Both the position numbers and the translations under genes were made by a program. 64,000 nucleotides of DNA from a virus. The DNA lies in IMG/VR virus record IMGVR_UViG_3300027659_000017, positions 1-64,000 of that record. One strand, given 5' to 3'. The number at the start of each line of letters is the position of its first letter. The first letter of the stretch is position 1. Below, one piece after another: positions 33,657 to 51,219 of this stretch. The notes beneath the pieces were generated by a model, which saw only the letters and a program-made list of their open reading frames with translations, made no database searches and was not told where the DNA came from.

Positions 33657-36600
33657 ATGGCAAAAGATCAAGGTATACAAGACACTAGTAAGGTTTTAAG
33701 TAACTCCTTTACAAAAGGATTAAATAAAGATTCTGACCCTTCATTTGTTTCTGAAGGTATGTGGACACATGCCCGAAATGTTGTAAATAACACAATTGAA
33801 GGTGACGTAGGTACATTATCAAATGAGATCTCAAATGTTCTTTGCGGAACCACAGGAAGAACAATGCCGGCAACAGTGACAGATAAATATATCATTGGTG
33901 CTATCTATCTTTATTCTGATAAATGGTTAGTATTTACGGCAGGACATGGAAACACTGGTCAAAGAATAACATCAGAGATTGGTTTGTACGAAGAAGACAT
34001 CTGTAAGTATAGAGAGATTGTACAGGATCCTTGTTTGAATTTTGATAAAAGATATCTTATCTCTGGTGCTTCTAGAGAAAAAGAAGATTGTACTTGGCAG
34101 GTATACTGGGTAGATGCATTTAATCCAGATAGATTTTTAAATGTTGGTGACCCACAGACATGGCCAGATGCAAGTTACAACTGGGTAGGTGGTGGAGCAA
34201 ATAGTATGAACTATTATTCAAATGGTAGTGATAGTACATTTCTATGGCCGGGTGTTAATTGGAATAAAAACATAACAGTAATTAACGACTGTGATTTTGT
34301 TACTAATACAAATACATTAAATTGTGATCATATAAGACTTGCTAGGTTAATGGAGACACCATGTCTTAATTTGACTTTAGGACAATCTGGTGGGACCATG
34401 GCCAATGGTACTTATTTTGCAATGATTGCATATTGTATCAAAGGCCAGAAAGTAACTGACTGGTTTTCCCAAAGTAATTTTCAGTTTATATACAATGTCA
34501 ATGATTTGTCAGGTTCATTAACACTTGAGGTTAATGCTGATTCAGAAAACTTTGATGAGTTTATTTTAGCAATTGTTGAAGCTACTAACCAACAGACAGT
34601 TGCTTCTCAAATGGGATTCTATTCTACTAAGACTACAAGAATTGCAATTGATCAAATTAACATTGCTACAGTTAAAATTCCATTAGAGCAGTTACCTATT
34701 ACTACACCGGTATATGAAACATCAGATCAGATGACTGATGTAAATGGATATCTATTGAGAGTTGGTCCTAGATCAAAATTTGACTTTAACTATCAACCAC
34801 TTGCCAATATGATCAGAGCAAAATGGGCAAGTGTAGAATACCCAGCTGATTATTATATGAAGGGTGGGAATAAAACAAACTATCTGAGAGACGAAGTATA
34901 TACATTTTACATCAGATGGGTATATGATACTGGAGATAAGTCTGCATCATATCATATTCCAGGTAGAGCACCTAGAAGTTTTAATGTACCTGGTATAGGT
35001 TCTAGATTTGAAACAGAGGCTTTAATAGATCCAAATGCTTTAACTATAGATGATCAAGTATTTGAAGTTTACAATACGGCTTCTATTACCCCGGGAGGAT
35101 TAACTGGTACAACTACTGATGATGGAGGTACTGTAATTGCAGTAGGGGATATGGGTTACTGGCAGTCTTCTGAAAGATATCCTGACAACAGACCTGACAT
35201 TTGGAATCCAAGTGAATATTGTTGGACGGGTGCTGCAGCACAAAATGGTTCTTTTGATTTATGTGGTAAGAATATCAGACATCATAAGTTTCCAGAAAAC
35301 TTTATTGCTAATAGTACTTCTACAGATGCAGTACACTTTAGACCAAATGCAAACATCCCGACCAATGGTCAAGATTTTGCAATCAGGTTAATGGGTGTAT
35401 ACTTTGAAAACATTACTCTTCCAAAAGATCAACAAGGTAAAGACATCCCTGGTATTGTGGGTTATGAAATTCTAAGAGGTTCTAGAGAAGGTAACAAAAC
35501 TATTGTAGCAAAAGGTATGGTCAACAACTTCCGTACTTTCCAATTAAGAGGAAAGCTGGCACAAGGAAGAACTGGACTTTATGCTAACTACCCATACAAC
35601 ACAATTGTACCAATTGGAAGTTCTACAGATCCTGATGACCACAACTACTTGTATAATGATCCTTACATAAAGAATGAGGACTCAGATAACAATGTGGTTA
35701 ATCAATCTATACCGTCAGATATCTTTACATTCCATTCCCCGGATACAATGTTCCGTACACCTTATTTATCTACTACAGAATTTAAGTCTTATGGAATCTT
35801 GAGTGGATATGCTGACTTAGAATTCCAGGAACCAAATGGTCATCCTAATTGGAAATTGTTAGCAAATGCTGTTGTATTTCCTATGATTGTAGGTGGAGTT
35901 GCTGAAGCTATTATTTCTATGTTAGGTAAGAGAACAGTCAATACTCCAAAAGTTTTAAGTTATACAGAACAATATAGAGGTCTTGCTGGAGTTGGTCCAA
36001 TTATTTTTGCATCAGGTTCTAGTACTATTCAGAGTTCAACAGCACAAAATACAGCACTAGGTTTAATTGGAACAGCAGCAACTGCATACAATACTTTTGT
36101 AAATAACTATTACAATGGTCCTGCAACACTTGATGTTGGTTTAATGTTGGCTTTGGGATATTCAGGTACATTATATGAAGGTGCACTATCAAACTACGTT
36201 AATGTAGTAAATACTAATGCTAATTCAGCAGGTATTCCAAAAATTGCAAAATTAGAAGGCTCATTTGAATTTCCAAAATGGGCATATTTAGATCCAGTAA
36301 CAAGACTACTTGGTGCAGCAAATCAAATAGCATATTACTTTGCAGAAGGAGCAGACATTGCACTAAAAGTGTTTTATGCAATAACACCATATAGACAATA
36401 TGCTCTACAACAAGTAAGTCATGGGTTCTATGGTAATATGTTTCCAACTTCAGCTAATGCTCTAAAAAGATTTGACATAGATGATAGTTTTTATATCCGT
36501 GATAATATACAAGAGGTGAGTAAATACCAAGATGTAGTTTCCGGAGTATACCGTACCTATTCAATCAATAATTTAAAGAGATCAGATGCTGTAGTAGTAA

Positions 36601-39101
36601 GAACTAAATCCGGACCATATTATAATCCAGCATATCCAACAGGTGTTAATATAGGTCCTAATCTTATTACATCTGGTATGAGAGATGTTTCTTTGATTAC
36701 ACTTGGTGGGGTAGTTCAATATGATTCAAGTGCGGCATTTTTAACAAATGATCTTCCAACATTTGATGATGACAAAAAAGATATACCATTCAGTTTATCA
36801 ATTGCAAGTCATTACGGTGGGTTAAAGACACGAGTAAGAAATCAATATGGACAGGTAGGAAGTGAAAATGAAATTGTAATTACTACATGTGAGCAAAGAT
36901 TAAAAGACTATACTTTAGCTGAGACTTCATGGACATGTCCTATTGATTCAATATTCTATGAATCTAAAGTAATCATCAGAACTCCATTAGTATTTGGGGG
37001 AGATACTTATATCAATAGATATACAGAAAAGAATAATATGATGTTCTTCTATGACTGGTTGTATGGACAGCCTGATGGATTTGAATACAACTATTATTTA
37101 AGAAGCATGATTCCTCAAGCAAGATTTAAAGCAAATAGTATTGCATATGATACTGGCTACTTGTCTGAGGTATTTAATTTTGGATCACCATCTATACCTG
37201 GTACCGGTGCATTCCCTGGAGCTTTTTATAATTTGGATTACTATGTTAATAGCAATAGGTTCTATAATTATACAAATGATGTTTCAGAAGGTAACTGGAT
37301 TGGTGACAGGTACAGAGGTTTGTGGTCTGTAAAGGAAGCATATTTCTATCTTGCTAATTCTGGTATCAGAGATTTCTTTGTTGAATCTGAAGTTCTAGTT
37401 GACTTTAGAAAACAAAGTATATACGAAGGAGGAAAACATTATGATCCGTATAGATATACGGACTATGTTGCAATGTTTAACATGAATCCAGACGTTATGG
37501 GAAAATTGAGTGAGTACATTTATGATTACTCACTTAGTGTATCTAAACTTTACAACCAGTATTTTTCTGCGGGAAGTACTCAAGGTAAGTACTATGATCC
37601 TAATGTAGCCAAGTTATGTTACACATACTATCCAGATAGAATTATCTATTCATTGCCTCAACAATATGAAGCAATAAAAGATAGCTGGTTCATTTACTTA
37701 ATCAATAACTACAAGGAATTCAAAGGACAAATCTCTGGAGTAAAGGCAATCAACAAAAGTGGTATATTCATTACTTTCAAAAATGAAAGTCCTTTGATGT
37801 ATCAGGGTGTAGATACACTTGAAACAGATTTGAATACTAAGATTACTATTGGTGATGGAGGATTATTCTCACAACCACAACAAGCAGTAATTAATGCTGA
37901 CCGTGCATATGAATATGGTTCTTCTCAAAATAGATTGTCTGTAATATCTACTCCGGTAGGTATATTCTACATGTCTCAAAATCAAGGAAGGATATTCTCG
38001 TATGGTAGTAATCTGGATGAGATTTCTCAGGCCGGATTGAAATGGTGGTTCATCTTGTACATGCCTTATAGGCTTACACAAGACTTCCCAGACTATCCTT
38101 GGAAAGATAATCCAGTAGCAGGTATTGGATGTCAAGCAACCTATGACAGCACAAGTACCATTTTATACTTTAGTAAGAAAGATTATCACTTAAGGGATGA
38201 GTATAAAGGACGTGTGACTTATCAGCCTATGACGGCAAATGGTTCAGGAGATTACTTTATACTTGATGGTCATAAAAACTTGAGATATAACTTGGGAGAT
38301 CCTCTTATATTTGAGGATGCATCATGGACTATTAGTTATGACCCTAAGAATCAGTATTGGATTAGTTTCCATGACTGGCATCCGGATCTAGTTATTCCTA
38401 CTAAAGATATATTTATCAGTTCTAAGAAGAATACTCTGTGGAAACATAACTATATCTGTGATGGCTACTGTAACTATTATGGTGTACAGTATGGCTTTGA
38501 ACTTGAATTCCCAGTTGTATCCGGTCAAACAGTAATGACTGCTAGATCTATAGAATACATATTAGAGTGCTATCGTAGAAATGGTAATAGTTGTATTGAC
38601 CAGCACCATGTGTTGGATTACAACTTTGACCAGGCTGTGATATACAACTCTGAACAAGTATCCGGCTACCTTAACTTGAATCTATATCCTAAGAATGATA
38701 TAAACCAGTCATTGCAATATCCTAAACTAAACGGGAACCTGAGCTCATATGACATCCTTTTCTCTAAAGAAGAAAACAAGTATAGGTTTAACCAGTTCTG
38801 GGATATAACAAAGAACAGAGATGAATTCCCTATTGGTTCAAACTATCCACCAACGGGACCAGTAATTCCAGGAACGACAATACTACAAGGTTCGTACTCT
38901 TCTGAGAATACTTGGATCACATCTCAAGATGGTTTTACACGTATACTAAATCCTAACAATATGGATTACGGGAAACCTGAATTAGAAAGAAAGAAGTTTA
39001 GACATTACTTAAATTTCATAAATTTAAGGAGAGATAAGTGTGACAATGTAAACATGATTCTTAAAATGTCAAGTAGTAAAAATCAATTTTCTCCTAGATA
39101 A
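33657..39101 (+). CDS. tail stabilization/muzzle protein
   Basis: 1814 aa; F.KGLNKD..ARN N-terminus, RDEVY.FYI, FGGDTYI, WTISY..WISFHDWHP. Confidence 0.7.
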   Translation: MAKDQGIQDTSKVLSNSFTKGLNKDSDPSFVSEGMWTHARNVVNNTIEGDVGTLSNEISNVLCGTTGRTMPATVTDKYIIGAIYLYSDKWLVFTAGHGNTGQRITSEIGLYEEDICKYREIVQDPCLNFDKRYLISGASREKEDCTWQVYWVDAFNPDRFLNVGDPQTWPDASYNWVGGGANSMNYYSNGSDSTFLWPGVNWNKNITVINDCDFVTNTNTLNCDHIRLARLMETPCLNLTLGQSGGTMANGTYFAMIAYCIKGQKVTDWFSQSNFQFIYNVNDLSGSLTLEVNADSENFDEFILAIVEATNQQTVASQMGFYSTKTTRIAIDQINIATVKIPLEQLPITTPVYETSDQMTDVNGYLLRVGPRSKFDFNYQPLANMIRAKWASVEYPADYYMKGGNKTNYLRDEVYTFYIRWVYDTGDKSASYHIPGRAPRSFNVPGIGSRFETEALIDPNALTIDDQVFEVYNTASITPGGLTGTTTDDGGTVIAVGDMGYWQSSERYPDNRPDIWNPSEYCWTGAAAQNGSFDLCGKNIRHHKFPENFIANSTSTDAVHFRPNANIPTNGQDFAIRLMGVYFENITLPKDQQGKDIPGIVGYEILRGSREGNKTIVAKGMVNNFRTFQLRGKLAQGRTGLYANYPYNTIVPIGSSTDPDDHNYLYNDPYIKNEDSDNNVVNQSIPSDIFTFHSPDTMFRTPYLSTTEFKSYGILSGYADLEFQEPNGHPNWKLLANAVVFPMIVGGVAEAIISMLGKRTVNTPKVLSYTEQYRGLAGVGPIIFASGSSTIQSSTAQNTALGLIGTAATAYNTFVNNYYNGPATLDVGLMLALGYSGTLYEGALSNYVNVVNTNANSAGIPKIAKLEGSFEFPKWAYLDPVTRLLGAANQIAYYFAEGADIALKVFYAITPYRQYALQQVSHGFYGNMFPTSANALKRFDIDDSFYIRDNIQEVSKYQDVVSGVYRTYSINNLKRSDAVVVRTKSGPYYNPAYPTGVNIGPNLITSGMRDVSLITLGGVVQYDSSAAFLTNDLPTFDDDKKDIPFSLSIASHYGGLKTRVRNQYGQVGSENEIVITTCEQRLKDYTLAETSWTCPIDSIFYESKVIIRTPLVFGGDTYINRYTEKNNMMFFYDWLYGQPDGFEYNYYLRSMIPQARFKANSIAYDTGYLSEVFNFGSPSIPGTGAFPGAFYNLDYYVNSNRFYNYTNDVSEGNWIGDRYRGLWSVKEAYFYLANSGIRDFFVESEVLVDFRKQSIYEGGKHYDPYRYTDYVAMFNMNPDVMGKLSEYIYDYSLSVSKLYNQYFSAGSTQGKYYDPNVAKLCYTYYPDRIIYSLPQQYEAIKDSWFIYLINNYKEFKGQISGVKAINKSGIFITFKNESPLMYQGVDTLETDLNTKITIGDGGLFSQPQQAVINADRAYEYGSSQNRLSVISTPVGIFYMSQNQGRIFSYGSNLDEISQAGLKWWFILYMPYRLTQDFPDYPWKDNPVAGIGCQATYDSTSTILYFSKKDYHLRDEYKGRVTYQPMTANGSGDYFILDGHKNLRYNLGDPLIFEDASWTISYDPKNQYWISFHDWHPDLVIPTKDIFISSKKNTLWKHNYICDGYCNYYGVQYGFELEFPVVSGQTVMTARSIEYILECYRRNGNSCIDQHHVLDYNFDQAVIYNSEQVSGYLNLNLYPKNDINQSLQYPKLNGNLSSYDILFSKEENKYRFNQFWDITKNRDEFPIGSNYPPTGPVIPGTTILQGSYSSENTWITSQDGFTRILNPNNMDYGKPELERKKFRHYLNFINLRRDKCDNVNMILKMSSSKNQFSPR

Positions 39102-42100
39102 TGTATAATAAAAAAGTTCTTATTGATGCTCTCAAAACTCTGGGTACACCTTCTACACCTAAGAAGTATAACTTCAATGATGGAGGTGCAAAAAATACTG
39201 GATTAAATGAGGTACCATACAAACAAGTTAGTGTTAAGCCATCAAATGTTGCAGGTAAAGGTTTGTTTGCAGATGAGCCAATTAAGGCCGGAGAAATAAT
39301 TGGTCTTTCTCATATCAAATCTTTTTATGAAAGAGGTGGTCAGAATTATATGAAGAGTCAAGAGACACCGGTTGTAGGTAAGTATTATAATCACTCTGAT
39401 GATGCATTTAATGCTGGTTCTATTATTGAAGGTAACAAAAGATATTTAAGAGCTCTCAGAGATATTGAAGCTGGAGAAGAGATACTTGGTAATTACCGTG
39501 AAGATGATGATCCTTCATTGGAAAGTCCAGATGATTTTAAGAGAGGTGGTTCTTTACCAAGAATGCCTAGAAAGAAAAACTCCAGAGGGTATTCTAGAAG
39601 TTTAGAAGCTACAAATAAGTTCTTTACTGAAAATGCATTCTTTGCCAAACCTAAGTCAAGAAAGAATAAAGTATATGATCCTAATTCAAAATACTATAGA
39701 AAAGGAGGAGCTTCTTCTCCAGAAGAATGGGAACAAGAAATTAGAGCTATAGAAAGTCAAATAGGAAATCCTAAAAACTGGACTCTAGAGGATCGTAATC
39801 TTTTACAAGATAAACTTAATGCTTATAAAAACTGGAGAGAAACAACTCCAGAAGGACAAGCTGTTAAAGATTCTCATAATGTACCAGGTGAGTATGAGGC
39901 TTTTATACCTGAGCATTTAAACGGAGCTCCTTATAATACATCAGGTCCAAGATACATAGAAGAATCTATGGAACAATATCCTGTTGGTAGTGCACCAAAA
40001 GTATATGGGAATGAGCCGGAAGATTATCAAAGATTTTTAGATTACAATCAAACAGCTCCTGAAAACAGAAGAGGTTATGAAGAGTATAGATATGGAGATC
40101 CAAATTCATATGATCACTATGGTATGTGGGATGCTCTTGGTAAACCAAAAGATTTTCAAGAAGCTCTTCAAATGAATCCTGATTGGACACCAGATGAATA
40201 TGATGGATCATATCATGGATTCAGTGTTAATCCTAACACAGGTGTGTTTCTTAAATCTGGTAAACCTGGATTAAAACCTGGAGATACTACCTGGATGGAA
40301 ATAGCTGGACATTATCTTAGCCCTAGAGCAGATATAGACACACCAGTATTTGATCCAGAGATAGGTAGATTTAAATATGTTCCTAATGAAGAATATATTG
40401 AAACAAAACTTTCACCAGAAGACATAGACAAGTACGTAAAAGGAGGTTATATTGTTGAAGACATTTCTGTACCTAAACTTACTAAAGCTAGAACTGGTTT
40501 AGAAGTTATTAAAACAGCTTTACCTTTTCTTAAAAAAACTGCACCAACTATGTTAGATTTAAAAAATCTTCCAGTTGGTTTTAATCCATCTGAACTTTCA
40601 TTTCCATTATTAATTAATGGTTCAAGTGGTTTTATACATACTGCACCTAACAGAAAACTTAATGATAATCTTTTTCATTTTGCAGCTAGCATGAAAAACC
40701 CATTGGAAGCAGGAAGAGCATTCAATATAATCAATCAAGCTTTTCCGTTTGCCAATCCCTCAATATTAGAACCAGCTAGTTTAAGTCTTGACTCTTTGAA
40801 TCTTTTATTAAACATGGGTCAGAAACGTGATTGGGATATGAGGTATGCTGATCATCATATTCCATTAAACTTCTTTTCTGAACATAATGATTTATTTGGT
40901 GATCTTGGTAGTACTAGAAGTGCACTACATCAAGCAATAGGTTCACAGTCTAAAAAAACTGGTAATGAAATGGTAGATAGACTGAATGCATATCTAAATG
41001 GAAGAGGGATACAACAGAAAGCATATCTACAATCACATGCTCCAGGATTAAGACAAATCATGATTCCTAACTTTCAACTAACTAGAAAATATGCTAAAGG
41101 AGGAACTAAGAATAATCCACCTGTATTAGGATCTTTACTTAAAGCTGTTACAAGATCTAACTATAATCCATTAAGTATACCTATTAAGTTAGCTGGTGAA
41201 AAAATTGCTAGAATAGGTCCTTTACCTTATAGAACAAAAGATGAAATAATAAAAAGTTTAACAGGTAAAATGGAACCGGCTTATTTTGGGCAAACTGGTA
41301 TTTATGGTTCAGATTCATCATTATTTTGGAATGACCCAGATGGTCCATTAATGAAGGATATATATGGTCTAGGTAAAAGAGATTTAATAGCTAACTATTT
41401 TAGAGGTATTGATACAGGATTCAAACCAATTGAATATGACTTTAATAATGATCCTGGTCTACAAGCTGCCATAAAACAGTATGGTCCTTTAAAAGCTTAT
41501 GAACTTTTATCTCAACAAGCTCATGGTGAACCATTAGAAGATGGTCGTATTGGTTATGCATTACGTGTGCATAATGATGCTATGAAAAAGTATGGTTTTG
41601 ATCCAGCTTTGTTTATTAAATATAATGATTGGGACTTTCATAAATTTAATCCTCTTGGATCTCCAGAATTTATAAAACAAAGTTATCATGATTTGTTTGA
41701 TAGATATGGACAAGAAACTATTCCAATTGAAATTCAATCTGATGCTTCAAAAGGAAATCCTGAATTTATGATGGCAGGCAATCCAGTAACTCCAGCAGAT
41801 AATATTGGAGGTCATATGGGTTTCTTACAAAGAACACCTGAGGAAGAATTTAATTTTACCACAAGAGATTTGTGGGGATTCAGACCAGAAGCATACAATA
41901 GCAAATGGAATATGGATACCAAAATGAAACAAGGCCAAACACAATTGATGGATGCTTTTGGTAAACCCTTTGTTCTTACACAGACTAATCCTATTCAATT
42001 TAACACATATAAGAACTTTAAGAAGAAGTTCTTTAAGAAGGGTGGTGCTAAGACTAATCCACCACTTCTTGGTAATATGGCTAAGGCTATACAAAGAGGA

Positions 42101-44968
42101 TACAGCCCTAACTTAGTAAAGTCAATATTTGAGTTAAGTCAGAATGGTCAGAACTTGCAAGCATTAAATTATCTAAAAAATAATTACCTACGAAATATGG
42201 GTTCTTTAATGGATCTACCTGGAGCTGTGCAAGGTTCTACATTAGACTTACCACAACTTAATGCACAACAGATAGAAGCATTACTGCATCAGAAACCTAT
42301 GTTAGAAAGTGATTTTCTAACTCAATACAGTGGGTATAATCCTATACAATATGATGGAGGTTTACCAATTGTTACTGGGGGATTGACAGGTCATAAAACT
42401 TCATTCCAAAACTTTGACAGAAACTTTAGAGGAACAGGTTTTGGTAATCAAACGGGTGGTGTATATTTTACTACACAACCAACTGTTGCTGCTGAGAATG
42501 CTCAAATTAGTAGTATGGGTGGCTATGGATTTAATCCTAATACACCAACATTTACACCTCATATTTCAGAAGCTATATTTAAAAATCCTGATAAATTTTT
42601 ACAGTATAATGCACCCATAACAGAAGAATTGGCTAAATCTATTGGAATGATTAATGGCATAGATCCAAGAAATAGTGACACATTAGGACAGCTTGAAATT
42701 GATCTGAGAAAAAGTTTTTCAAAAACTGATGATTATAGTGATTATGATTTTGCTATGAAATCAGCTGCTGATGCTTTAAGAGAAAAAGGAATTGCAGGTT
42801 ATTTTGATCCAAGTGGTCGTATCCAAGAAATAGTGGCTTTTGATGAAGGTGATGTAAATAAAATAAAACAGTTTGAACTTTACAAAGATCTTGATGATGC
42901 TTTGATTATGGGATATCTGAAAGCAATTTCTAAAACTCCATCAACACAAACTGATGCAGAGAAAAAATTGGTTGCTGCATTTGAAGAGTATCTGAAAACT
43001 GGTAACAAACAACAACTAATAGATAGAAAGAAAGGTGGTGCACTACCACCATCTCTATTGAAGACTCTCAAAGGAGTTAGTAAATTGACTCCAGGTAATG
43101 CTTTAAGATCTACATTGTACTCTGCTGTTAATCCAGCTAGTTATAACATTCTAAAAAAAATAAAGGCTGCACCTCTTGAGCTATACAATAACATGATGTA
43201 CAATGATACTCGTCCCTTTAGAGTAGGTATGAGTTTAAAACATGGGGCTCCTGAATTAAGAGACAACATGTTAGAACATGTTCGTATGGATTTAAACCAG
43301 TGGAATAAAACTTCATTGGCAGATCAAATGGCTGCAATAAAAAATGCATATGGTAGCAAGCATTTGAACACATTAGAAGATATTGGAAGAAGAAGATTAG
43401 ATTCCTGGGCTGTAGGTTTGAAAAGACCACAGGAGCATAATACTTTAGAACAAGTGGGTGACAATACATTTAGAATGGTTGACACAGAATATACTCCTAT
43501 GTACTTAAATGAACTTTACAATGATCTATTAGCTACAAAAATTGAATCTGATCCTATGGCCAACGGCTTTGGTTCTGTTGTTGATGATGGACAATTCAGT
43601 CCACTAGAACAACTTAGTAGAGATCAGTTTAGAGTTAAGACACAATATTTTGCTTCTAATCCAGCAACAGTTCCGTACAGATTATCAGAAAAAGATAAGA
43701 TAGGATATCCAAATTGGAATAGAACAAGACATGCACAAGTTGATCCTATGGGTCTTTTATCTAAGATGACTACAGGTACGGTATATGACAATGACCGTTA
43801 TGGAGTAATGGGTGGTTACAATTGGAAAATTAATGAACATCCAGAAGGAATGGTTTTTCAAACCAATGACCTATGGGATTTAAATCCGTTTGAAAAAAGA
43901 ATAGATCCTATGTTAAATACTGATGCTCTTAAAAATAAGTATCTAAACATGCACTATTACAAACCATTCCAAAACTTTGAAGCACTTCGTGCAGTGGGTG
44001 GTAAACCATTTAACATACAGAACAATTTCTTGGTAGATCCTGATTCATTTAATGTACTAAGACAATGGGCAGAAGGTGGACCATTAAAAGGGGGTCCAGA
44101 AGAACCTATAACAGATTGTCCAGAAGGCTACACATATGATCCAGATAAATTGGGTTGTGTACCAATGTCAAGTGATGTACAAGATCCTGCTCAACAACAT
44201 ATTTCCAACTGGTGGATGAATAGAGAAATAAAATGGCCTGAGAATAATAAAGATTATCAAAACAATATGGAACAGATTCTTCCTACATCAAATCCAAATT
44301 CTCCTGTTATAGAGCAATTAAACAATTGGCCGGGTTATGTTTATACTGATAATTTACCAAGACCAGATGCTGGAGGTACATATGACACTTCAAAAAAAGA
44401 ACCAAGAATATTTGTAAGGAAAAGTTTTAGTCCTGAAATGAGATTGCAAACTGAAATACATGAAGGAACTTCACATGCCAATGCTCCAGTAGCAGATCAA
44501 TTATTTGATATGCATAATAGGATTATGAAACAAAATCTTATTCCAATAAATAAAGATTGGTCACCAGCACAAAAAGATTTTTACAATTATGTGACAGCAC
44601 CAGATGAAGATAACTACCACTCTTATCTTATGAATGCCAGAAAGATATTTAATGTAGATCCTAAACAAGTTGTAACTGAATCTGATATAAATAAATGGAG
44701 ACAACAAGCTGAAGAAAGTGGAATGATGGATAGAGAGAGTCCTAACTTTAATGAAGAGATTTACATTTTATTTAAATTCGCAAAAGATCCAGCATCATTG
44801 ACCAATATATTTAATTACATGGCAGAAAATAAAAATGAATCTGCTGAAGAAGGTCCACAGTATACTAAAGATGGTGGTAGTATTGACTACGAATTAGGTG
44901 ACACAGTAGATAAAGCTACTATGGAAAAATTAAAAGAATTAGGTTATACCTTTGAACAAATTAAGTGA
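39101..44968 (+). CDS. giant modular protein A, putative virion cargo (SET, ART-like, zincin-like, 2 x unknown domain)
   Basis: 1955 aa; modules separated by xKxGG tags. Confidence 0.7.
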   Translation: MYNKKVLIDALKTLGTPSTPKKYNFNDGGAKNTGLNEVPYKQVSVKPSNVAGKGLFADEPIKAGEIIGLSHIKSFYERGGQNYMKSQETPVVGKYYNHSDDAFNAGSIIEGNKRYLRALRDIEAGEEILGNYREDDDPSLESPDDFKRGGSLPRMPRKKNSRGYSRSLEATNKFFTENAFFAKPKSRKNKVYDPNSKYYRKGGASSPEEWEQEIRAIESQIGNPKNWTLEDRNLLQDKLNAYKNWRETTPEGQAVKDSHNVPGEYEAFIPEHLNGAPYNTSGPRYIEESMEQYPVGSAPKVYGNEPEDYQRFLDYNQTAPENRRGYEEYRYGDPNSYDHYGMWDALGKPKDFQEALQMNPDWTPDEYDGSYHGFSVNPNTGVFLKSGKPGLKPGDTTWMEIAGHYLSPRADIDTPVFDPEIGRFKYVPNEEYIETKLSPEDIDKYVKGGYIVEDISVPKLTKARTGLEVIKTALPFLKKTAPTMLDLKNLPVGFNPSELSFPLLINGSSGFIHTAPNRKLNDNLFHFAASMKNPLEAGRAFNIINQAFPFANPSILEPASLSLDSLNLLLNMGQKRDWDMRYADHHIPLNFFSEHNDLFGDLGSTRSALHQAIGSQSKKTGNEMVDRLNAYLNGRGIQQKAYLQSHAPGLRQIMIPNFQLTRKYAKGGTKNNPPVLGSLLKAVTRSNYNPLSIPIKLAGEKIARIGPLPYRTKDEIIKSLTGKMEPAYFGQTGIYGSDSSLFWNDPDGPLMKDIYGLGKRDLIANYFRGIDTGFKPIEYDFNNDPGLQAAIKQYGPLKAYELLSQQAHGEPLEDGRIGYALRVHNDAMKKYGFDPALFIKYNDWDFHKFNPLGSPEFIKQSYHDLFDRYGQETIPIEIQSDASKGNPEFMMAGNPVTPADNIGGHMGFLQRTPEEEFNFTTRDLWGFRPEAYNSKWNMDTKMKQGQTQLMDAFGKPFVLTQTNPIQFNTYKNFKKKFFKKGGAKTNPPLLGNMAKAIQRGYSPNLVKSIFELSQNGQNLQALNYLKNNYLRNMGSLMDLPGAVQGSTLDLPQLNAQQIEALLHQKPMLESDFLTQYSGYNPIQYDGGLPIVTGGLTGHKTSFQNFDRNFRGTGFGNQTGGVYFTTQPTVAAENAQISSMGGYGFNPNTPTFTPHISEAIFKNPDKFLQYNAPITEELAKSIGMINGIDPRNSDTLGQLEIDLRKSFSKTDDYSDYDFAMKSAADALREKGIAGYFDPSGRIQEIVAFDEGDVNKIKQFELYKDLDDALIMGYLKAISKTPSTQTDAEKKLVAAFEEYLKTGNKQQLIDRKKGGALPPSLLKTLKGVSKLTPGNALRSTLYSAVNPASYNILKKIKAAPLELYNNMMYNDTRPFRVGMSLKHGAPELRDNMLEHVRMDLNQWNKTSLADQMAAIKNAYGSKHLNTLEDIGRRRLDSWAVGLKRPQEHNTLEQVGDNTFRMVDTEYTPMYLNELYNDLLATKIESDPMANGFGSVVDDGQFSPLEQLSRDQFRVKTQYFASNPATVPYRLSEKDKIGYPNWNRTRHAQVDPMGLLSKMTTGTVYDNDRYGVMGGYNWKINEHPEGMVFQTNDLWDLNPFEKRIDPMLNTDALKNKYLNMHYYKPFQNFEALRAVGGKPFNIQNNFLVDPDSFNVLRQWAEGGPLKGGPEEPITDCPEGYTYDPDKLGCVPMSSDVQDPAQQHISNWWMNREIKWPENNKDYQNNMEQILPTSNPNSPVIEQLNNWPGYVYTDNLPRPDAGGTYDTSKKEPRIFVRKSFSPEMRLQTEIHEGTSHANAPVADQLFDMHNRIMKQNLIPINKDWSPAQKDFYNYVTAPDEDNYHSYLMNARKIFNVDPKQVVTESDINKWRQQAEESGMMDRESPNFNEEIYILFKFAKDPASLTNIFNYMAENKNESAEEGPQYTKDGGSIDYELGDTVDKATMEKLKELGYTFEQIK

Positions 44969-47900
44969 TGGCAAAATATAGAATAACAAGTATTCCTCAA
45001 TCATTACCACAAGCTCGTAAAGGAGGGTCATTAAAGTACAAGAAAGCAAAATCTGGTAAATTAAAAAATTTCTTCTTTGGTAATGAAGGTGATTATGATA
45101 ATATTGCCATGGATATGTTCAATACGGATATGATGAATGGATCTCCTAGAACTGCTGCCGGTAATCAACCTATGGTAGAAGTAGAAGGTGCACCACAACC
45201 ATCATACTGGAATATGCAGCAAGGATGTCCTCCTGGAAAATTCTCTTACAATGGTCAATGTTTTACAGAAGCCGAGTATGTAGAGTATTCTAAAAGAGAA
45301 ATGGAAGAGTACGAAAGAAGTATGAACCAGAAGAAAGCTGCTAGTCAACAAAGATTTGAAGGTATAGTTCAAGAAAACCAACAACGAGCACAAGAACAAA
45401 GTACTAGGTTAAATCAAGAAGAAACTGAAAGATACTATACTAATTTCAAAAACTCAAAGAAGTCTGATAAGATAGATCCATACATGTCCATTCCTAATTT
45501 GAATATGGATAGAATGGTGGATATGGTTGATCCAGAAGGTAATCCTGTTTTAGGGGAGGATGGTAAGCCACAGCAAGAAACTTTAGGAGATCAATTAAAG
45601 AAATCTTTTCTTATTAACGTTACAGAGAATGGATATACACAACTGTATCCAAAAGATATTGTCCATGACAGAATCGTTAAGCATGGTTTTCAAGCCGATC
45701 AGTTTAAGAATATCTGGGGATTAGATCCTAAACAAGTTAAAGAACAACTTGGAGATATAATGAAACTGGCTGATGAACAGTACACTAATACTGTTTTGAA
45801 CAAGGTTGCTAAAACTGCTATAGAAGAAGGTAAGTCACCGGAAGAAGTAATCAAATCTTTACCTACATCATGGGGAGGAAGTGAATTGACTAAATATATT
45901 AAGCCATCTCAAGAAGAGGTTGATAAAATCTATTCTGAATTTGTTAAACAAAGTTTAGAAGGTCTTCAAAAACAAATAGGTGTTAAGGAAGAGGATGGAA
46001 TGCTGCGGTATGACAGAAGTAAAAAAGCAGATAAACCAAAACTTGATTTTGATTTTGAAAGTGATATCTATTTAAATGCATATGATGATGATGGTACTTT
46101 AACAGCACAAGAAGTAGATCCTGTAAAAGCATATGCTCAGAAGTGGATAGCTTCAGGAAAGACTGCTAAAGAAAGATATGAAAGACAAATGCAAGTTGAT
46201 GCTATCAACCGTAAAGATTATTCAAAAACATATGATGAAGCAGTTAAAAATGATAAAACATTTAAAGAAACATTTAATATAGATGATATTAATTTAAATG
46301 CATCCGGAGAGGATATAAATAATATGCCTCCTTCAGATAGAATGCAAACACTTAAACTTAATGAGACACGTAGACTTAATGAGATCAATCAAAGCAATTC
46401 TGAGAGAGCTGAAGAAAATATAGGAGATAATGCTGTACAAACTAAACGTACTGAAGATTTAATAAAACTTACAGGTTTTACAGATGACTTTAATAAATTT
46501 ATGCAAGAACGGCAACGTTTAACTATGTATGGTGTATATAAAAATGCATTAACAGATTCAGGAATATCCTATGCAGATAAAGCTAAAGTTCTACAACATC
46601 TCAATGACAACAAAGGTGACTTAGCATATAACTATTTGTTTGACAGAAGCCGTGATGCTTCTGATCCCTTATCACAAAATAATTATAATTCTGAACTAGG
46701 TAGCTTAATGGGTGGAGAAGGTTATGGAAATCTTTTGACACAGCCAAAAATTCAACAAGGAAAAGCTCCAGGTGCCGATATTGGTGTAGGTGCTAAAACA
46801 TGGGATGTCTTAACCAATTGGGGTGATGCTGCTTATCATGGATTAAATGCTTTTATAGGTAATAAAGATTTTAGTGATAACATGTGGAGTATTCCAGGTA
46901 AATCTTTAAATGAAGTAAAAGCTGATGAAGAAAGATTAGGTATAGATCTAAGAGGTAACGATCAATTTAATGCTTCACTTGTACCTGAACTTTTAAATAA
47001 GTTAAATCCTTTGCATGCAGTAGATGAAATCTATAGAGGTTATAAAAGAAATGGACTTAAAGGAGCTTCATCTAAAGCAAGTAAAGCAGCATGGGATGCT
47101 ACTGAAACTGCAGCAATGTTTATTCCAGGGGGTCAAGGAATTAAATTACTACGTCAAGCATCTCTATTAAACAATACTCTAAATAAAGGTAGTCTATTAA
47201 ATAAAATTTCTAAAGGTTTTAATGGACTACAAAGAGGAATTAATAGTCTAGGTTTGCCTGGACAATATGTAACAAACTACTTTAACAAAAGTCTACCAGC
47301 ATTTGCTTTTGATGCAGTAAGACCATATGGTGAATTTCATGAAGGTTTTGAAAATTTAACAGAAGGAAAAACAACAGAAGGTTTAAAAAACTTGGGATGG
47401 GGAACACTTGGTATAACTCCATATATAAGTAAAATACCACGTATTGAATACCAAACTCCATCAGGTAGAACATTTGGTATTGGTAATACAGGAACAACTT
47501 GGACTACTGCACAAAATGAAAAACAATTTGCAGACTTAATGAAATCTAGTACACTTGATGATTTAAAAAAAGTTTATTCAGAAGAAAATCAAATTGCAGA
47601 AGCTGAACAAGCACTTAATAATGGAACAGCATTTCCAAATTATACATTTACACATCCGTTAAAAAGACAAGCTCAACTTTCTGATGATTTTCAAAATATG
47701 ACTAATCAAGAATTTGCTTTCAAAAATTTAGGATTTGCTCCAAAACCAGGAGGACCTTTTCAACTTGGAACTTTCAATAGCCCATTAAAATATTCAGGAA
47801 AACTCGGACAGTTACAATTTGGTACAGGAAAATTTTTTCCAGCTAAACTTCAGGGAATAGAATACAGACCTAATATACAGTATGATACTGCACCTATGAC

Positions 47901-50900
47901 TATTGGTTTTAGAAATGGAGGTTCTATTCCTAAAGCTAATGTAGGTATGATTGTTAGTGGACTGCAAAGTTTAGGTAACCCTACAAAGATGAAAACTGGT
48001 GGAGCATTACCACCACCTAACTTAGGTAAGATAGTAAAGGTAGCAAACAGTTTAGCAATTCCTACAAAACAGATGGTAAAGTCGTTACCAAGTATGGGTA
48101 ATCAACCTGGTTTAGAATGGTTACAAAGGTGGTATTCAAGTCCAGAGTTAGCAACAAGAATTTCAAACACTATTGATCCATCTTCTGCTTTTGATCTTAA
48201 AAAACATAGTGTTTCTTTAGAAAAGTTAATGGCAGCACAGCCTAAAACATATTCTCAATTAGCAGCAAAAAACGGTTTACTACAAACTATTCCTTATTAT
48301 ATAGGGACAGGTGGTTTGTACTCAGGTGGTAATTTATATATCAATCGTCTTTTATCTAAAGCAAATCAAGAGTCTTTTACAGCTCATGAAGGAACTCATT
48401 TATATGATGATCCAAGACATGCTGTAACCCAACCAACGGTAACACAAGAATGGATAGGACCTGATGGACAGAGAAGAGTTCAATTTGATGAAAATTCACT
48501 TGTCCAAGATGATTATCATTTAGATGCAAATGGAAGACCTACCTTTTTTAATCAAAAAGAAACCGAAATGTTATTAAAACCTTTTGGTCTTTCTAAACCT
48601 CCTTTGTATCCAAACAAAATGGATCTTTTTGGTAATGATTATTTTAGAAGATACTATACACATCCAGATGAAATTCATGCTAGAATGAACCAAGGTAGAT
48701 TTATGCTTAATAAATCTCCAGAAGATCCTTTTACATTAGATGATTTTAATAAAGTACAAACTTTAGAGGACTGGTTTGGAATGGGTAAACATATAACAGA
48801 TAAAAATGCTTTTCTGGATTTGATGAATAAATTCTATGGAGTTGTCCCTGCTGCAATAGTAGGTTCTCAACTACTAGATGAAGACACAGAACAAAGAAAA
48901 AAAGGAGGATCTACACCAAAAGCTAAAGCAAATCCACCAAGAGTATTGGGAAGAACAGTTCAAAGTATTAGTAGTATGTTGAAACCTACTTCTCAATTTA
49001 GAACTACCATGAATGCATTAGAAAATTTTGGAAGTACTTTACCTACAAATATGTCTCTTTTGAATTCAGTTGCTAAACCATTCCAAGGTATTAATAATCC
49101 TGTCATGGATTTAAATGTACAAGGCTTACTGAAGTCTCCAACTGATTTGGGTGGTACAGGAATAATAGGTTATGGAGATGACATACATAAAGGTGATCCA
49201 TGGTATCAAATAGATCCTGCAGATTATGGAGGAAGTGAGACATGGAGACAAGAAGGAAGAACTGATGCTGAAGGATCTATAGAAAGATATCTTGGTAATC
49301 TAAAACCATATGGACCGGATGCATTTAATAATATAGGAAACTTTGATTTTGAGATAGGATCAGATGGATGGAAAGCAAGAAATGCAATGATGGGAATGGC
49401 CAGTCCACTGTACCAACCTCAGAAAACTCTAGGCACAGGAGATTTTTATACATTTGATGAGTTCAGTAATTTAGTTCAAAAACAAACACAGTATTTAAAT
49501 GATAGAGCTGCTTTTGATGAAATGTATCCTGAAGACCCAGGTATGAGAATGTGGAATGCTTTACGTGGTGATACACAAAGAGATGAAATGTTTGCTAATT
49601 TATTTCCCAATTCTGGTATACAAAACTTTAAACAAAAGTTTTATACTCCAGAACTTTTAGATCTTATGAAAAAAACAGATCGAGATGAAAAAGGTAGAAA
49701 TTTATATGATCAATTGGTAAGTAATACAAACATGGGTGATAATAAAATGTTAAACATGAGGTCTTTAAATAGTGTAACAAAAGGAGAAGATACTTTACCT
49801 TCTACATACAAAGACTTAGTTGAGTACTTAAAACCTGATAGTTATTTATATACGGCTCCAGCTAAAGAGGTTGTTGGTGAAATGAGAGGAAGTCTTGGAC
49901 TAAAATTAGAAGACATTAATAATGCTACACCAGAGCAACTTGAAAAATGGAAACAAGAAATTATTAAAAAAATGTATGAACAAGCTAAAGAAAGATGGGA
50001 CAAAGATTCAACTATTCCTTTATCTGGTTATGATGCATATGAAAAATTCTTTAGTAGGTCAGGTTCTAAGAATAAACTTGGAGGAGCTATACCAAAAGCA
50101 CGACTGGGGTTAAGTGTAATTGGAAAGAATGTAAATAACATAGAAAACATTCTTAATGGTACAGCTAAATCAACAAATCTATTAAGACTAGTTGATAGAG
50201 CTATTACTCCGGTTGGTTATGGAATAGTTGGAAAAATGTTAGCATCTCCATTTACTTATATTAAACCTTATGTGCCGCAAACTTATGGTCTTAAGAATAG
50301 ATATGATGCATGGAATCTATATAATCAAATACAACCAAAATATGGAGGCCTGAGTCTTAATGAAGATGGTACAGTTGCGGTAAAAAACTTTGATATTTCA
50401 AAACCTATATTAGATCAAATAAGAAATTCAGAAAGAAACTCTTTTGAAACTGAAGAATTCAATAAGATGAATGGACATTTGGCAATTAACTTTGGTGGTG
50501 TTCATGGAAATGGTCTTGTAGCTAAAGGAGTTGATGATACTGGAAGACAGTATATGGATTTTACTGATACATGGGATTTACACCCTTTACAAAGATTTGG
50601 TAATTTGTTACCCAAGCCAATAAGAAATATTGAAGTTGGTCAAGTAACAGGTGGTAAACCTTTTGATCTTCGTAATAGAATTTACTTTGATGGAGAAGGA
50701 AATTATTTTAATCAAGATGGTACTCCATTAATTACATATAGTAAAGAAGTACCAGGATTTGACTATACAAATGGAGCATTACAGGTACAGCAAAATGCAT
50801 CAACAAGAAATATAAAAGAAATTGAATTACCAGATAATAAAAATGTTGAGTTTGTTGCAAGTTCAGGTGTACCTGAAAATGAATTTCAACAAGTAAATGA

Positions 50901-51219
50901 AGAATTTAATGATGCTTATCACCAGTCTAATTTAAACAAATTAGCTACAATAGGTATTGGTTTGGGAATAGGTGGTATTAATTCATTTATTGATTATCAA
51001 AATAACAAACCTATGCTAATGATTGATGTAAGAACTGGTAAGGTTGTTACTGTTACAAAAGCTGAGATGGAAGCAAACCCAGGTAGATACATTAGTACCA
51101 AAAATCTAAAACGTGGTGGTGCTATTTCCAAAAAGAAAACAGGTGGTGTAGTAACTGAGCTCACTAAAAAAGAAATAGAGCAATATGTTAAAGATGGCTA
51201 TATCATTGAAGATTACTAA
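44968..51219 (+). CDS. giant modular protein B, putative virion cargo (hydrophobic region, HExxH zincin, unknown domains)
   Basis: ATG 44968 overlaps previous TGA; HEGTH; GG tags. Confidence 0.7.
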   Translation: MAKYRITSIPQSLPQARKGGSLKYKKAKSGKLKNFFFGNEGDYDNIAMDMFNTDMMNGSPRTAAGNQPMVEVEGAPQPSYWNMQQGCPPGKFSYNGQCFTEAEYVEYSKREMEEYERSMNQKKAASQQRFEGIVQENQQRAQEQSTRLNQEETERYYTNFKNSKKSDKIDPYMSIPNLNMDRMVDMVDPEGNPVLGEDGKPQQETLGDQLKKSFLINVTENGYTQLYPKDIVHDRIVKHGFQADQFKNIWGLDPKQVKEQLGDIMKLADEQYTNTVLNKVAKTAIEEGKSPEEVIKSLPTSWGGSELTKYIKPSQEEVDKIYSEFVKQSLEGLQKQIGVKEEDGMLRYDRSKKADKPKLDFDFESDIYLNAYDDDGTLTAQEVDPVKAYAQKWIASGKTAKERYERQMQVDAINRKDYSKTYDEAVKNDKTFKETFNIDDINLNASGEDINNMPPSDRMQTLKLNETRRLNEINQSNSERAEENIGDNAVQTKRTEDLIKLTGFTDDFNKFMQERQRLTMYGVYKNALTDSGISYADKAKVLQHLNDNKGDLAYNYLFDRSRDASDPLSQNNYNSELGSLMGGEGYGNLLTQPKIQQGKAPGADIGVGAKTWDVLTNWGDAAYHGLNAFIGNKDFSDNMWSIPGKSLNEVKADEERLGIDLRGNDQFNASLVPELLNKLNPLHAVDEIYRGYKRNGLKGASSKASKAAWDATETAAMFIPGGQGIKLLRQASLLNNTLNKGSLLNKISKGFNGLQRGINSLGLPGQYVTNYFNKSLPAFAFDAVRPYGEFHEGFENLTEGKTTEGLKNLGWGTLGITPYISKIPRIEYQTPSGRTFGIGNTGTTWTTAQNEKQFADLMKSSTLDDLKKVYSEENQIAEAEQALNNGTAFPNYTFTHPLKRQAQLSDDFQNMTNQEFAFKNLGFAPKPGGPFQLGTFNSPLKYSGKLGQLQFGTGKFFPAKLQGIEYRPNIQYDTAPMTIGFRNGGSIPKANVGMIVSGLQSLGNPTKMKTGGALPPPNLGKIVKVANSLAIPTKQMVKSLPSMGNQPGLEWLQRWYSSPELATRISNTIDPSSAFDLKKHSVSLEKLMAAQPKTYSQLAAKNGLLQTIPYYIGTGGLYSGGNLYINRLLSKANQESFTAHEGTHLYDDPRHAVTQPTVTQEWIGPDGQRRVQFDENSLVQDDYHLDANGRPTFFNQKETEMLLKPFGLSKPPLYPNKMDLFGNDYFRRYYTHPDEIHARMNQGRFMLNKSPEDPFTLDDFNKVQTLEDWFGMGKHITDKNAFLDLMNKFYGVVPAAIVGSQLLDEDTEQRKKGGSTPKAKANPPRVLGRTVQSISSMLKPTSQFRTTMNALENFGSTLPTNMSLLNSVAKPFQGINNPVMDLNVQGLLKSPTDLGGTGIIGYGDDIHKGDPWYQIDPADYGGSETWRQEGRTDAEGSIERYLGNLKPYGPDAFNNIGNFDFEIGSDGWKARNAMMGMASPLYQPQKTLGTGDFYTFDEFSNLVQKQTQYLNDRAAFDEMYPEDPGMRMWNALRGDTQRDEMFANLFPNSGIQNFKQKFYTPELLDLMKKTDRDEKGRNLYDQLVSNTNMGDNKMLNMRSLNSVTKGEDTLPSTYKDLVEYLKPDSYLYTAPAKEVVGEMRGSLGLKLEDINNATPEQLEKWKQEIIKKMYEQAKERWDKDSTIPLSGYDAYEKFFSRSGSKNKLGGAIPKARLGLSVIGKNVNNIENILNGTAKSTNLLRLVDRAITPVGYGIVGKMLASPFTYIKPYVPQTYGLKNRYDAWNLYNQIQPKYGGLSLNEDGTVAVKNFDISKPILDQIRNSERNSFETEEFNKMNGHLAINFGGVHGNGLVAKGVDDTGRQYMDFTDTWDLHPLQRFGNLLPKPIRNIEVGQVTGGKPFDLRNRIYFDGEGNYFNQDGTPLITYSKEVPGFDYTNGALQVQQNASTRNIKEIELPDNKNVEFVASSGVPENEFQQVNEEFNDAYHQSNLNKLATIGIGLGIGGINSFIDYQNNKPMLMIDVRTGKVVTVTKAEMEANPGRYISTKNLKRGGAISKKKTGGVVTELTKKEIEQYVKDGYIIEDY

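Follow-up and report, generated by a model that had tools for sequence, protein, structure and literature searches.

A trimmed SET domain as an exchangeable module of a giant protein at the cargo position of a freshwater crAss-like phage

Introduction

Directly behind the muzzle gene of an uncultured phage lies an open reading frame for a protein of 1,955 residues (P0001) with a SET domain close to its N terminus. The locus raises the questions of whether this domain is genuine, how it is joined to so large a protein, and whether it could be delivered to the host as a lysine methyltransferase. The window that we analyzed comprises positions 1 to 64,000 of IMG/VR record IMGVR_UViG_3300027659_000017, a genome of 97,955 bp that is estimated to be 82% complete. 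We find a trimmed SET domain that behaves as an accessory module, and we give a probability of roughly 0.5 to the whole reading that it is a SET lysine methyltransferase on a virion cargo protein, injected into the host and acting on host proteins.

SET enzymes, a packaged viral SET enzyme, and polyvalent phage proteins are already known; a trimmed SET domain as a module of crassvirus cargo-position proteins did not appear in the literature that we could search. Legionella RomA/LegAS4 and Chlamydia NUE are SET effectors that bacterial secretion systems deliver to eukaryotic cells, where they methylate histones, and Alt of phage T4, a virion-injected ADP-ribosyltransferase, is the textbook protein-modifying enzyme in phage particles. 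P0001 would resemble all of these as a protein-modifying enzyme delivered by an invader to reprogram its target cell, and differs from Alt in that the chemistry of the latter is other than methylation. We know of few protein-modifying enzymes that travel in phage particles and, to our knowledge, bacteria have no histones.

Two published systems are among the closest. The minimal SET enzyme vSET is carried in the particles of Paramecium bursaria chlorella virus 1 (PBCV-1; PMC7019647), a precedent for a packaged SET domain. Polyvalent proteins, described by Iyer, Burroughs, Anand, de Souza, and Aravind in 2017, are very large, multi-module proteins encoded in the late or structural block of phage genomes, whose enzymatic modules are freely shuffled and which have been proposed to accompany the DNA into the host (PMC5512222); SET domains are not mentioned in the text of that paper. 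Our literature searches found nothing relevant on SET domains in cargo proteins of crAss-like or other phages and no description of a phage-injected or phage-delivered lysine methyltransferase, and the available part of the report on crAss001 mentions no methyltransferase (PMC10172136). The database copies that we looked up are all labeled hypothetical.

Results and Discussion

A genuine SET domain at the N terminus of a giant phage protein

The features on which the argument draws are as follows (residue numbers refer to P0001, and conservation to 189 relatives).

33657..39101, + strand: muzzle protein gene, 1,814 aa; matches crAss_MUZ (PF25731) at E = 5e-19, its 68 bits exceeding the cut-off of 27, and a PHROG of virion structural proteins
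39101..44968, + strand: giant ORF P0001, 1,955 aa, carrier of the SET module, at the crassvirus cargo position by synteny
39101..39187, + strand: N-terminal tag, aa 1-29, ending in F-N-D-G-G; its alignment is variable across relatives
39230..39496, + strand: SET catalytic core, S44-Y132, 89 aa, from Pfam, AlphaFold2 (AF2), and Foldseek and VIA matches to SET structures
39254..39262, + strand: GxG motif, G52-K-G54, of the SAM-binding loop; G54 is 100% and G52 92% conserved
39311..39313, + strand: H71, 100% conserved, at the site of the canonical E-Y-x-G segment in the alignment with MLL1
39326..39361, + strand: insert of 12 aa (76-87) where the SET-I region has been lost, from column occupancy and the model
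39389..39397, + strand: N97-H98-S99 motif for SAM binding; N97 and H98 are 100% conserved
39476..39496, + strand: E126-E-I-L-G-N-Y132, with the catalytic Tyr inside; E127 and Y132 are 99% conserved
39497..39550, + strand: acidic C-flank, aa 133-150, ending in F146-K-R-G-G150, a conserved part of the module
39551..39709, + strand: basic linker, aa 151-203, ending in Y-R-K-G-G, with 15 K/R in 53 aa

Residues 44-150 of this post-muzzle protein are a genuine SET domain in trimmed form. The initial annotation had proposed an intact SET domain with all canonical motifs, and the peptide that it quoted is the exact translation of the plus-strand frame 39101-44968. It had also named a Pfam search as a check, and PF00856 matched above its cut-off of 22.4 bits, both on aa 1-200 (E = 4.4e-9, 37.1 bits, which is not chance) and on the whole protein (30 bits). 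Across the 97,955-bp genome, a Pfam scan found this SET domain (26.5 bits) and no other. A family profile matches the SET domain of MLL1 at E = 8.5e-12 and vSET at E = 5e-9. The borders given in that annotation hold, since F25-N-D-G-G starts at 39173 and F146-K-R-G-G at 39536, with G125-E-E-I-L-G-N-Y132 ending at 39496 between them, and only its start of the domain shifts: position 39224 falls on Q42, whereas the run SVKPSNVAGKG begins with S44 at 39230.

The Pfam match, the predicted fold, and the conservation of GxG, NHS, and E..Y together bear out the claim that the catalytic and SAM-binding motifs are complete. Among 189 homologous segments, with identities down to ~35%, there is no variation at S48, G54, H71, N97, or H98, and conservation at G93, E127, and Y132 reaches 98-99%. 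The spacing of E126-E-I-L-G-N-Y132 equals that of E-E-I-T-I-S-Y in vSET, and the "PN" of the NH(S)xxPN motif is F103-N104 in the window protein, with P in 80% of relatives. In characterized SET enzymes, the GxG, NH, and E..Y positions serve SAM binding and catalysis. Because the invariants of the family are these cofactor and catalytic residues, we read their conservation as selection for catalysis, and the motifs make it likely that the module is an active SAM-dependent protein lysine N-methyltransferase.

Fold and departures from ordinary SET domains

An AF2 model built from an alignment of window aa 30-160 with 25 short relatives has a mean pLDDT of 79.6 and reaches 89-97 over the core (aa 40-129), while its first 10 and last ~20 residues are disordered. 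The top Foldseek matches in the PDB are all SET or PR domains, SET lysine methyltransferases with probability 1.0, including SETD8, vSET, MLL1, and EZH2. The SET beta fold is thus present in the model, as judged by AF2, Foldseek, and VIA.

The domain departs from ordinary SET domains in several ways. Some 33 MLL1 residues stay unmatched in the profile alignment; they make up the SET-I insert, which forms one wall of the substrate groove in typical SET domains and is nearly gone in the phage family, and the 12 residues at its site (aa 76-87) are modeled as the tip of a beta-hairpin, with strands at aa 66-78 and 81-88. This insert is occupied in only ~35-45% of relatives, most of which have almost nothing there. 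The near absence of SET-I is the loss of a family-typical feature, and SET-I is not universal among SET domains. This loss takes away one half of the groove in which SET enzymes normally hold the substrate; the enzyme could therefore be weak or dependent on a partner.

There is likewise no Cys-rich Zn post-SET region: aa 133-150 contain no Cys and form an acidic flank instead. A Zn post-SET is also absent from vSET and SETD8, so its lack still allows membership of the SET family. The flank follows the consensus P-E-L-E-x-P-E-D-F and then K-K/R-G-G in the 189 relatives, with L140 at 92%, E141 at 93%, P143 at 92%, F146 at 96%, and G150 at 72%, and 7 of 13 residues are acidic in the window protein, a composition that would suggest basic substrates. 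Its low pLDDT in the model probably means that it becomes ordered only with substrate or cofactor bound.

The closest characterized viral enzyme, vSET (A612L of PBCV-1, PDB 3KMA/1N3J), is a free-standing protein of 119 aa from a eukaryotic virus that methylates histone H3K27. The phage domain, in contrast, is shorter (an 89-aa core), has nearly lost SET-I, has the invariant H71 and an acidic flank ending in F-K-x-G-G, and is fused into a 1,955-aa protein of a phage of bacteria.

An exchangeable module between GG joints

We searched 1.84 billion cluster representatives (clusters at 50% identity) with the SET piece using HMMER, which matched 398 clusters at E<=1e-3, of which 128 reach E<=1e-10; among the best 150 of the 398, nearly all are proteins of 500-2300 aa. 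Most of 92 full-length giant homologues contain PF00856, and others carry an ART-PolyVal (PF18760), histidine phosphatase (His_Phos), or chitin-binding domain. The SET domain usually lies within the first 160 residues, and is also found at aa 445-545, 760-853, and 872-967. Internal copies start 7-25 residues past an F-R-K-G-G motif and end in F-x-K/R-G-G. In a FastTree phylogeny of the SET core, the domain changed between N-terminal and internal positions at least 10-12 times, a rough figure from a poorly resolved tree.

These borders are recurrent. Of 188 relatives, 145 have a GG no more than 30 aa past the catalytic Tyr (background 22%), and 124 of the 145 have it at +15 to +17. A GG also lies within 44 aa upstream of the SET domain in 38 of the 41 relatives that have an upstream module. 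P0001 itself contains seven copies of the joint motif [FYW]-x-[KRD]-G-G where 0.23 are expected, a number that none of 5,000 shuffles reached, and across 163 giant relatives the context [YF]-[QK]-[KD]-G-G flanks every module and both terminal tags. The joint resembles the GG sites of ubiquitin-like or adenain-type proteases, and it might be cut by a protease, act as a hinge, or mark a point of recombination. A 1,658-aa homologue (P0106) has two SET modules in tandem, with a basic stretch and an F-R-K-K-G-G joint between them.

Most of the IMG/VR relatives with the order ring, muzzle, and giant protein have no SET domain. In such syntenic relatives, an unrelated module of ~70 aa sits at the same joint, and behind it come the basic linker and the highly conserved core, as in P0001. 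The SET domain is absent while joint, linker, and core are kept, so it is an optional, exchangeable payload. The initial annotation had called the domain a cassette, and its GG-joint borders, its movement between N-terminal and internal positions, and its replacement by an unrelated module in syntenic phages bear this out; an accessory module joined via x-K/R-G-G joints within a giant multi-module protein is a well-supported reading of these comparisons. The replacement module has the pattern G-Q-W-K-Y-P-G ... I-T-M-x-G-V-P-Y-P ... M-M-Y-P-G-x-E-Y-x-F-P-G and ends in K-K-G-G (IMG/VR loci L009:7737-8030, L010:1495-1790, L011, L013, L016, and L018).

The same comparison bears on what the domain would methylate, for which the initial annotation had offered host proteins or the K-rich tagged proteins of the phage itself. 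The main rival to delivery into the host is self-modification, in which the SET domain acts in the producing cell on lysines of its own cargo or virion, in K-rich linkers and x-K-G-G joints, and tunes, for example, protease sensitivity, packing, or ejection. SAM is found in the producer cytoplasm and not in the virion or periplasm; the domain is covalently attached next to the x-K-G-G joints and to a strongly basic linker in which 15 of 53 aa are K/R, segments that its acidic C-flank would attract. However, SET-less syntenic relatives keep the basic linker, the tags, and the GG joints, and many relatives have the SET domain beside other modules, which argues that methylation is not integral to the function of linker, tag, or joint. 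This weakens self-modification, which we regard as unlikely. Since K-rich linkers and tags persist in the SET-less relatives, methylation of the tags is not essential to tag function, making the phage's own tagged proteins the weaker of the two proposed substrates. Delivery to the host remains the reading that we prefer, and that the substrates are host rather than phage proteins is, overall, tentative, falling a little short of an even chance.

A giant protein at the cargo position

The window belongs to a freshwater crAss-like phage, with terminase, portal, capsid, ring, and muzzle genes; several studies have its DNA in their freshwater metagenomes. Genes for the large terminase, portal, and major capsid protein were identified by PHROGs upstream of P0001 on the same strand, and P0001 is thus encoded among late and packaging genes, as polyvalent proteins are. 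The stop codon of the muzzle gene and the start codon of P0001 share 1 nt (TAATG), which suggests translational coupling, and the order ring, muzzle, giant protein is conserved in all IMG/VR relatives examined.

This order corresponds to gp43, gp44, and gp45 of Bacteroides phage crAss001, of which gp43 is annotated as tail tubular protein and gp44 as virion structural protein; from its adjacency to gp45, we take gp44 to be the muzzle. P0001, directly 3' of the muzzle gene, therefore occupies the position of gp45, the cargo protein C1. According to the crAss001 report by Bayfield et al. (2023), C1 is found in virions, with its N-terminal part in the tail barrel and thought to exit first (PMC10172136). 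With 842 aa, gp45 is far shorter than P0001 with its 1,955 aa, and it has a transmembrane helix by prediction but lacks an enzyme domain such as the SET domain of P0001. Between P0001 and gp45 we found no similarity (hhalign probability 0.1%; best BLASTP E = 0.16), nor did P0001 match a Pfam cargo family at E<=1, so its cargo status is proposed from synteny. Judged by gene position only, packaging of P0001 in the virion and its ejection into the host would be reasonably probable.

An unpackaged late enzyme would offer another explanation, in which the giant protein acts only in the cytoplasm of the infected cell and being encoded among structural genes says nothing about ejection. The lack of similarity to the proven cargo protein gp45 agrees with this, as does the very large cargo space that 1,955 aa and eight giant ORFs of ~48 kb would demand. 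Against it stand the one-base overlap with the muzzle gene and the coupling that it suggests, the order ring-muzzle-giant in all relatives examined, and crAss001 itself, which packs ~5.5 MDa of cargo encoded at the post-muzzle position (PMC10172136). We consider an unpackaged enzyme improbable and retain packaging as the preferred reading.

Cultured relatives were sought in GenBank. Megablast of positions 38000-46000 against GenBank phages gave no match, and tblastn found no cultured relative of P0001 among 50,697 phage records: the whole protein gave one weak, unrelated match, and for the SET piece the matches were confined to one record of a marine virus and a small hypothetical protein encoded by Prochlorococcus phage P-SSM7. 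No carrier of a P0001 relative was therefore found among GenBank phages.

Pfam searches with seven sub-segments of P0001 gave no significant match, leaving SET as its sole recognized domain. Residues 303-446 (40007-40438) form a conserved core with 50 invariant positions in relatives that are only 40-50% identical elsewhere; the invariants include Y-D-H-Y-G-M-W-D-A-L-G-K-P and Y-H-G-F-S-x-N-P-x-T-G-V. This core has no Pfam match, its profile matched nothing in the PDB, and its AF2 model (mean pLDDT 47.9) is unusable for a comparison of folds with gp45. Within P0001, the core may serve as a conserved anchor or have an enzymatic role.

A candidate effector for the takeover of the host

If the preferred reading holds, P0001 would be packed in the tail or capsid, would be driven into the host together with the DNA or before it, and would refold in the host cytoplasm, where SAM is available. 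The SET domain would then methylate lysines of basic host proteins (nucleoid-associated, ribosomal, transcription, or defense proteins) and so aid takeover. The optional and shuffled distribution of the module is the pattern of conflict effectors and fits the polyvalent-protein model (PMC5512222), which favors an accessory effector. P0001 homologues bear ART-PolyVal (PF18760) or histidine phosphatase domains as polyvalent proteins do; unlike in polyvalent proteins, SET alone is recognized by Pfam in P0001, and the 97,955-bp genome has no ART-PolyVal (PF18760) or MPTase-PolyVal (PF18818) hub detectable at E<=1.

Silent SET folds exist among some PR/SET pseudoenzymes, and P0001 could carry one as a binding or plug module, for instance docking in the tail barrel, as the near deletion of SET-I, the disorder modeled for the C-flank, and its exchange for a small, unrelated module at that site would allow, but the invariants are exactly the cofactor and catalytic residues (G54, N97, H98, E127, and Y132), which a structural role would not fix in 189 divergent sequences, making this the least probable of the explanations weighed here.

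A lysine methyltransferase acting in the host is thus the reading that we carry forward. The presence of the module in ~400 clusters of proteins (50% identity) encoded by uncultured crAss-like phages, together with the strict conservation of catalytic residues, points to a probably common and selected function. If the enzyme is active and ejected, lysine methylation would be in use in the conflict between phages and bacteria, and enzymology would gain a very small SET scaffold of ~90 residues. The x-K-G-G joints, for their part, would make the giant proteins a natural system for the study of effector-module swapping by phages. A more specific proposal, speculative and rather unlikely, is that this would be the first phage-injected lysine methyltransferase, freed by cleavage at x-K/R-G-G and methylating lysines of host nucleoid or defense proteins, with the possible effect of blocking defenses that conjugate to lysine; were it true, protein lysine methylation would join the known chemistries of phage takeover.

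Downstream giant proteins and cellular relatives

P0001 is the first of eight consecutive giant ORFs (39101-86813) of 1955, 2084, 1369, 1147, 1062, 2502, 3623, and 2113 aa, which together span ~48 kb or roughly half of the genome. Pfam and PHROGs searches of the seven giants after P0001 found only DUF7831 and LysM, the former in the 3,623-aa ORF (69599-80470) and the latter in the 2,113-aa ORF, and PDB sequence searches with four of the downstream proteins gave nothing. The 3,623-aa ORF also contains S-G-G-D-F-D-I-D-K at aa 2420, which resembles an RNA-polymerase metal-binding motif. In the ORF at 44965-51219, H-E-G-T-H occurs at 48385 (aa 1141) with an Asp three residues past the second His, a pattern that has been described for phage-type MPTase zincins (PMC5512222); no Pfam peptidase matched this region. 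Further HExxH motifs lie at aa 849 of the 3,623-aa ORF and aa 340 of the 2,113-aa ORF, and throughout the genome HExxH occurs as a bare motif only.

Bacterial genomes contain only distant relatives of the SET domain (26-39% identity), which are stand-alone proteins with a median length of ~156 aa, and a single-sequence scan of viral contigs likewise found only distant, stand-alone SET proteins. Because the bacterial relatives are distant and stand-alone, the cargo-fused SET clade looks specific to phages. Many of the distant bacterial relatives are in Saprospiraceae metagenome-assembled genomes (MAGs): of 80 bacterial loci (L022-L101), about one-third or more come from Saprospiraceae, Haliscomenobacter, or Lewinellaceae MAGs, lake and wastewater Bacteroidota. 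This skew could be a clue to the host group or to where the domain came from, or it could reflect a bias of the pattern-based scan.
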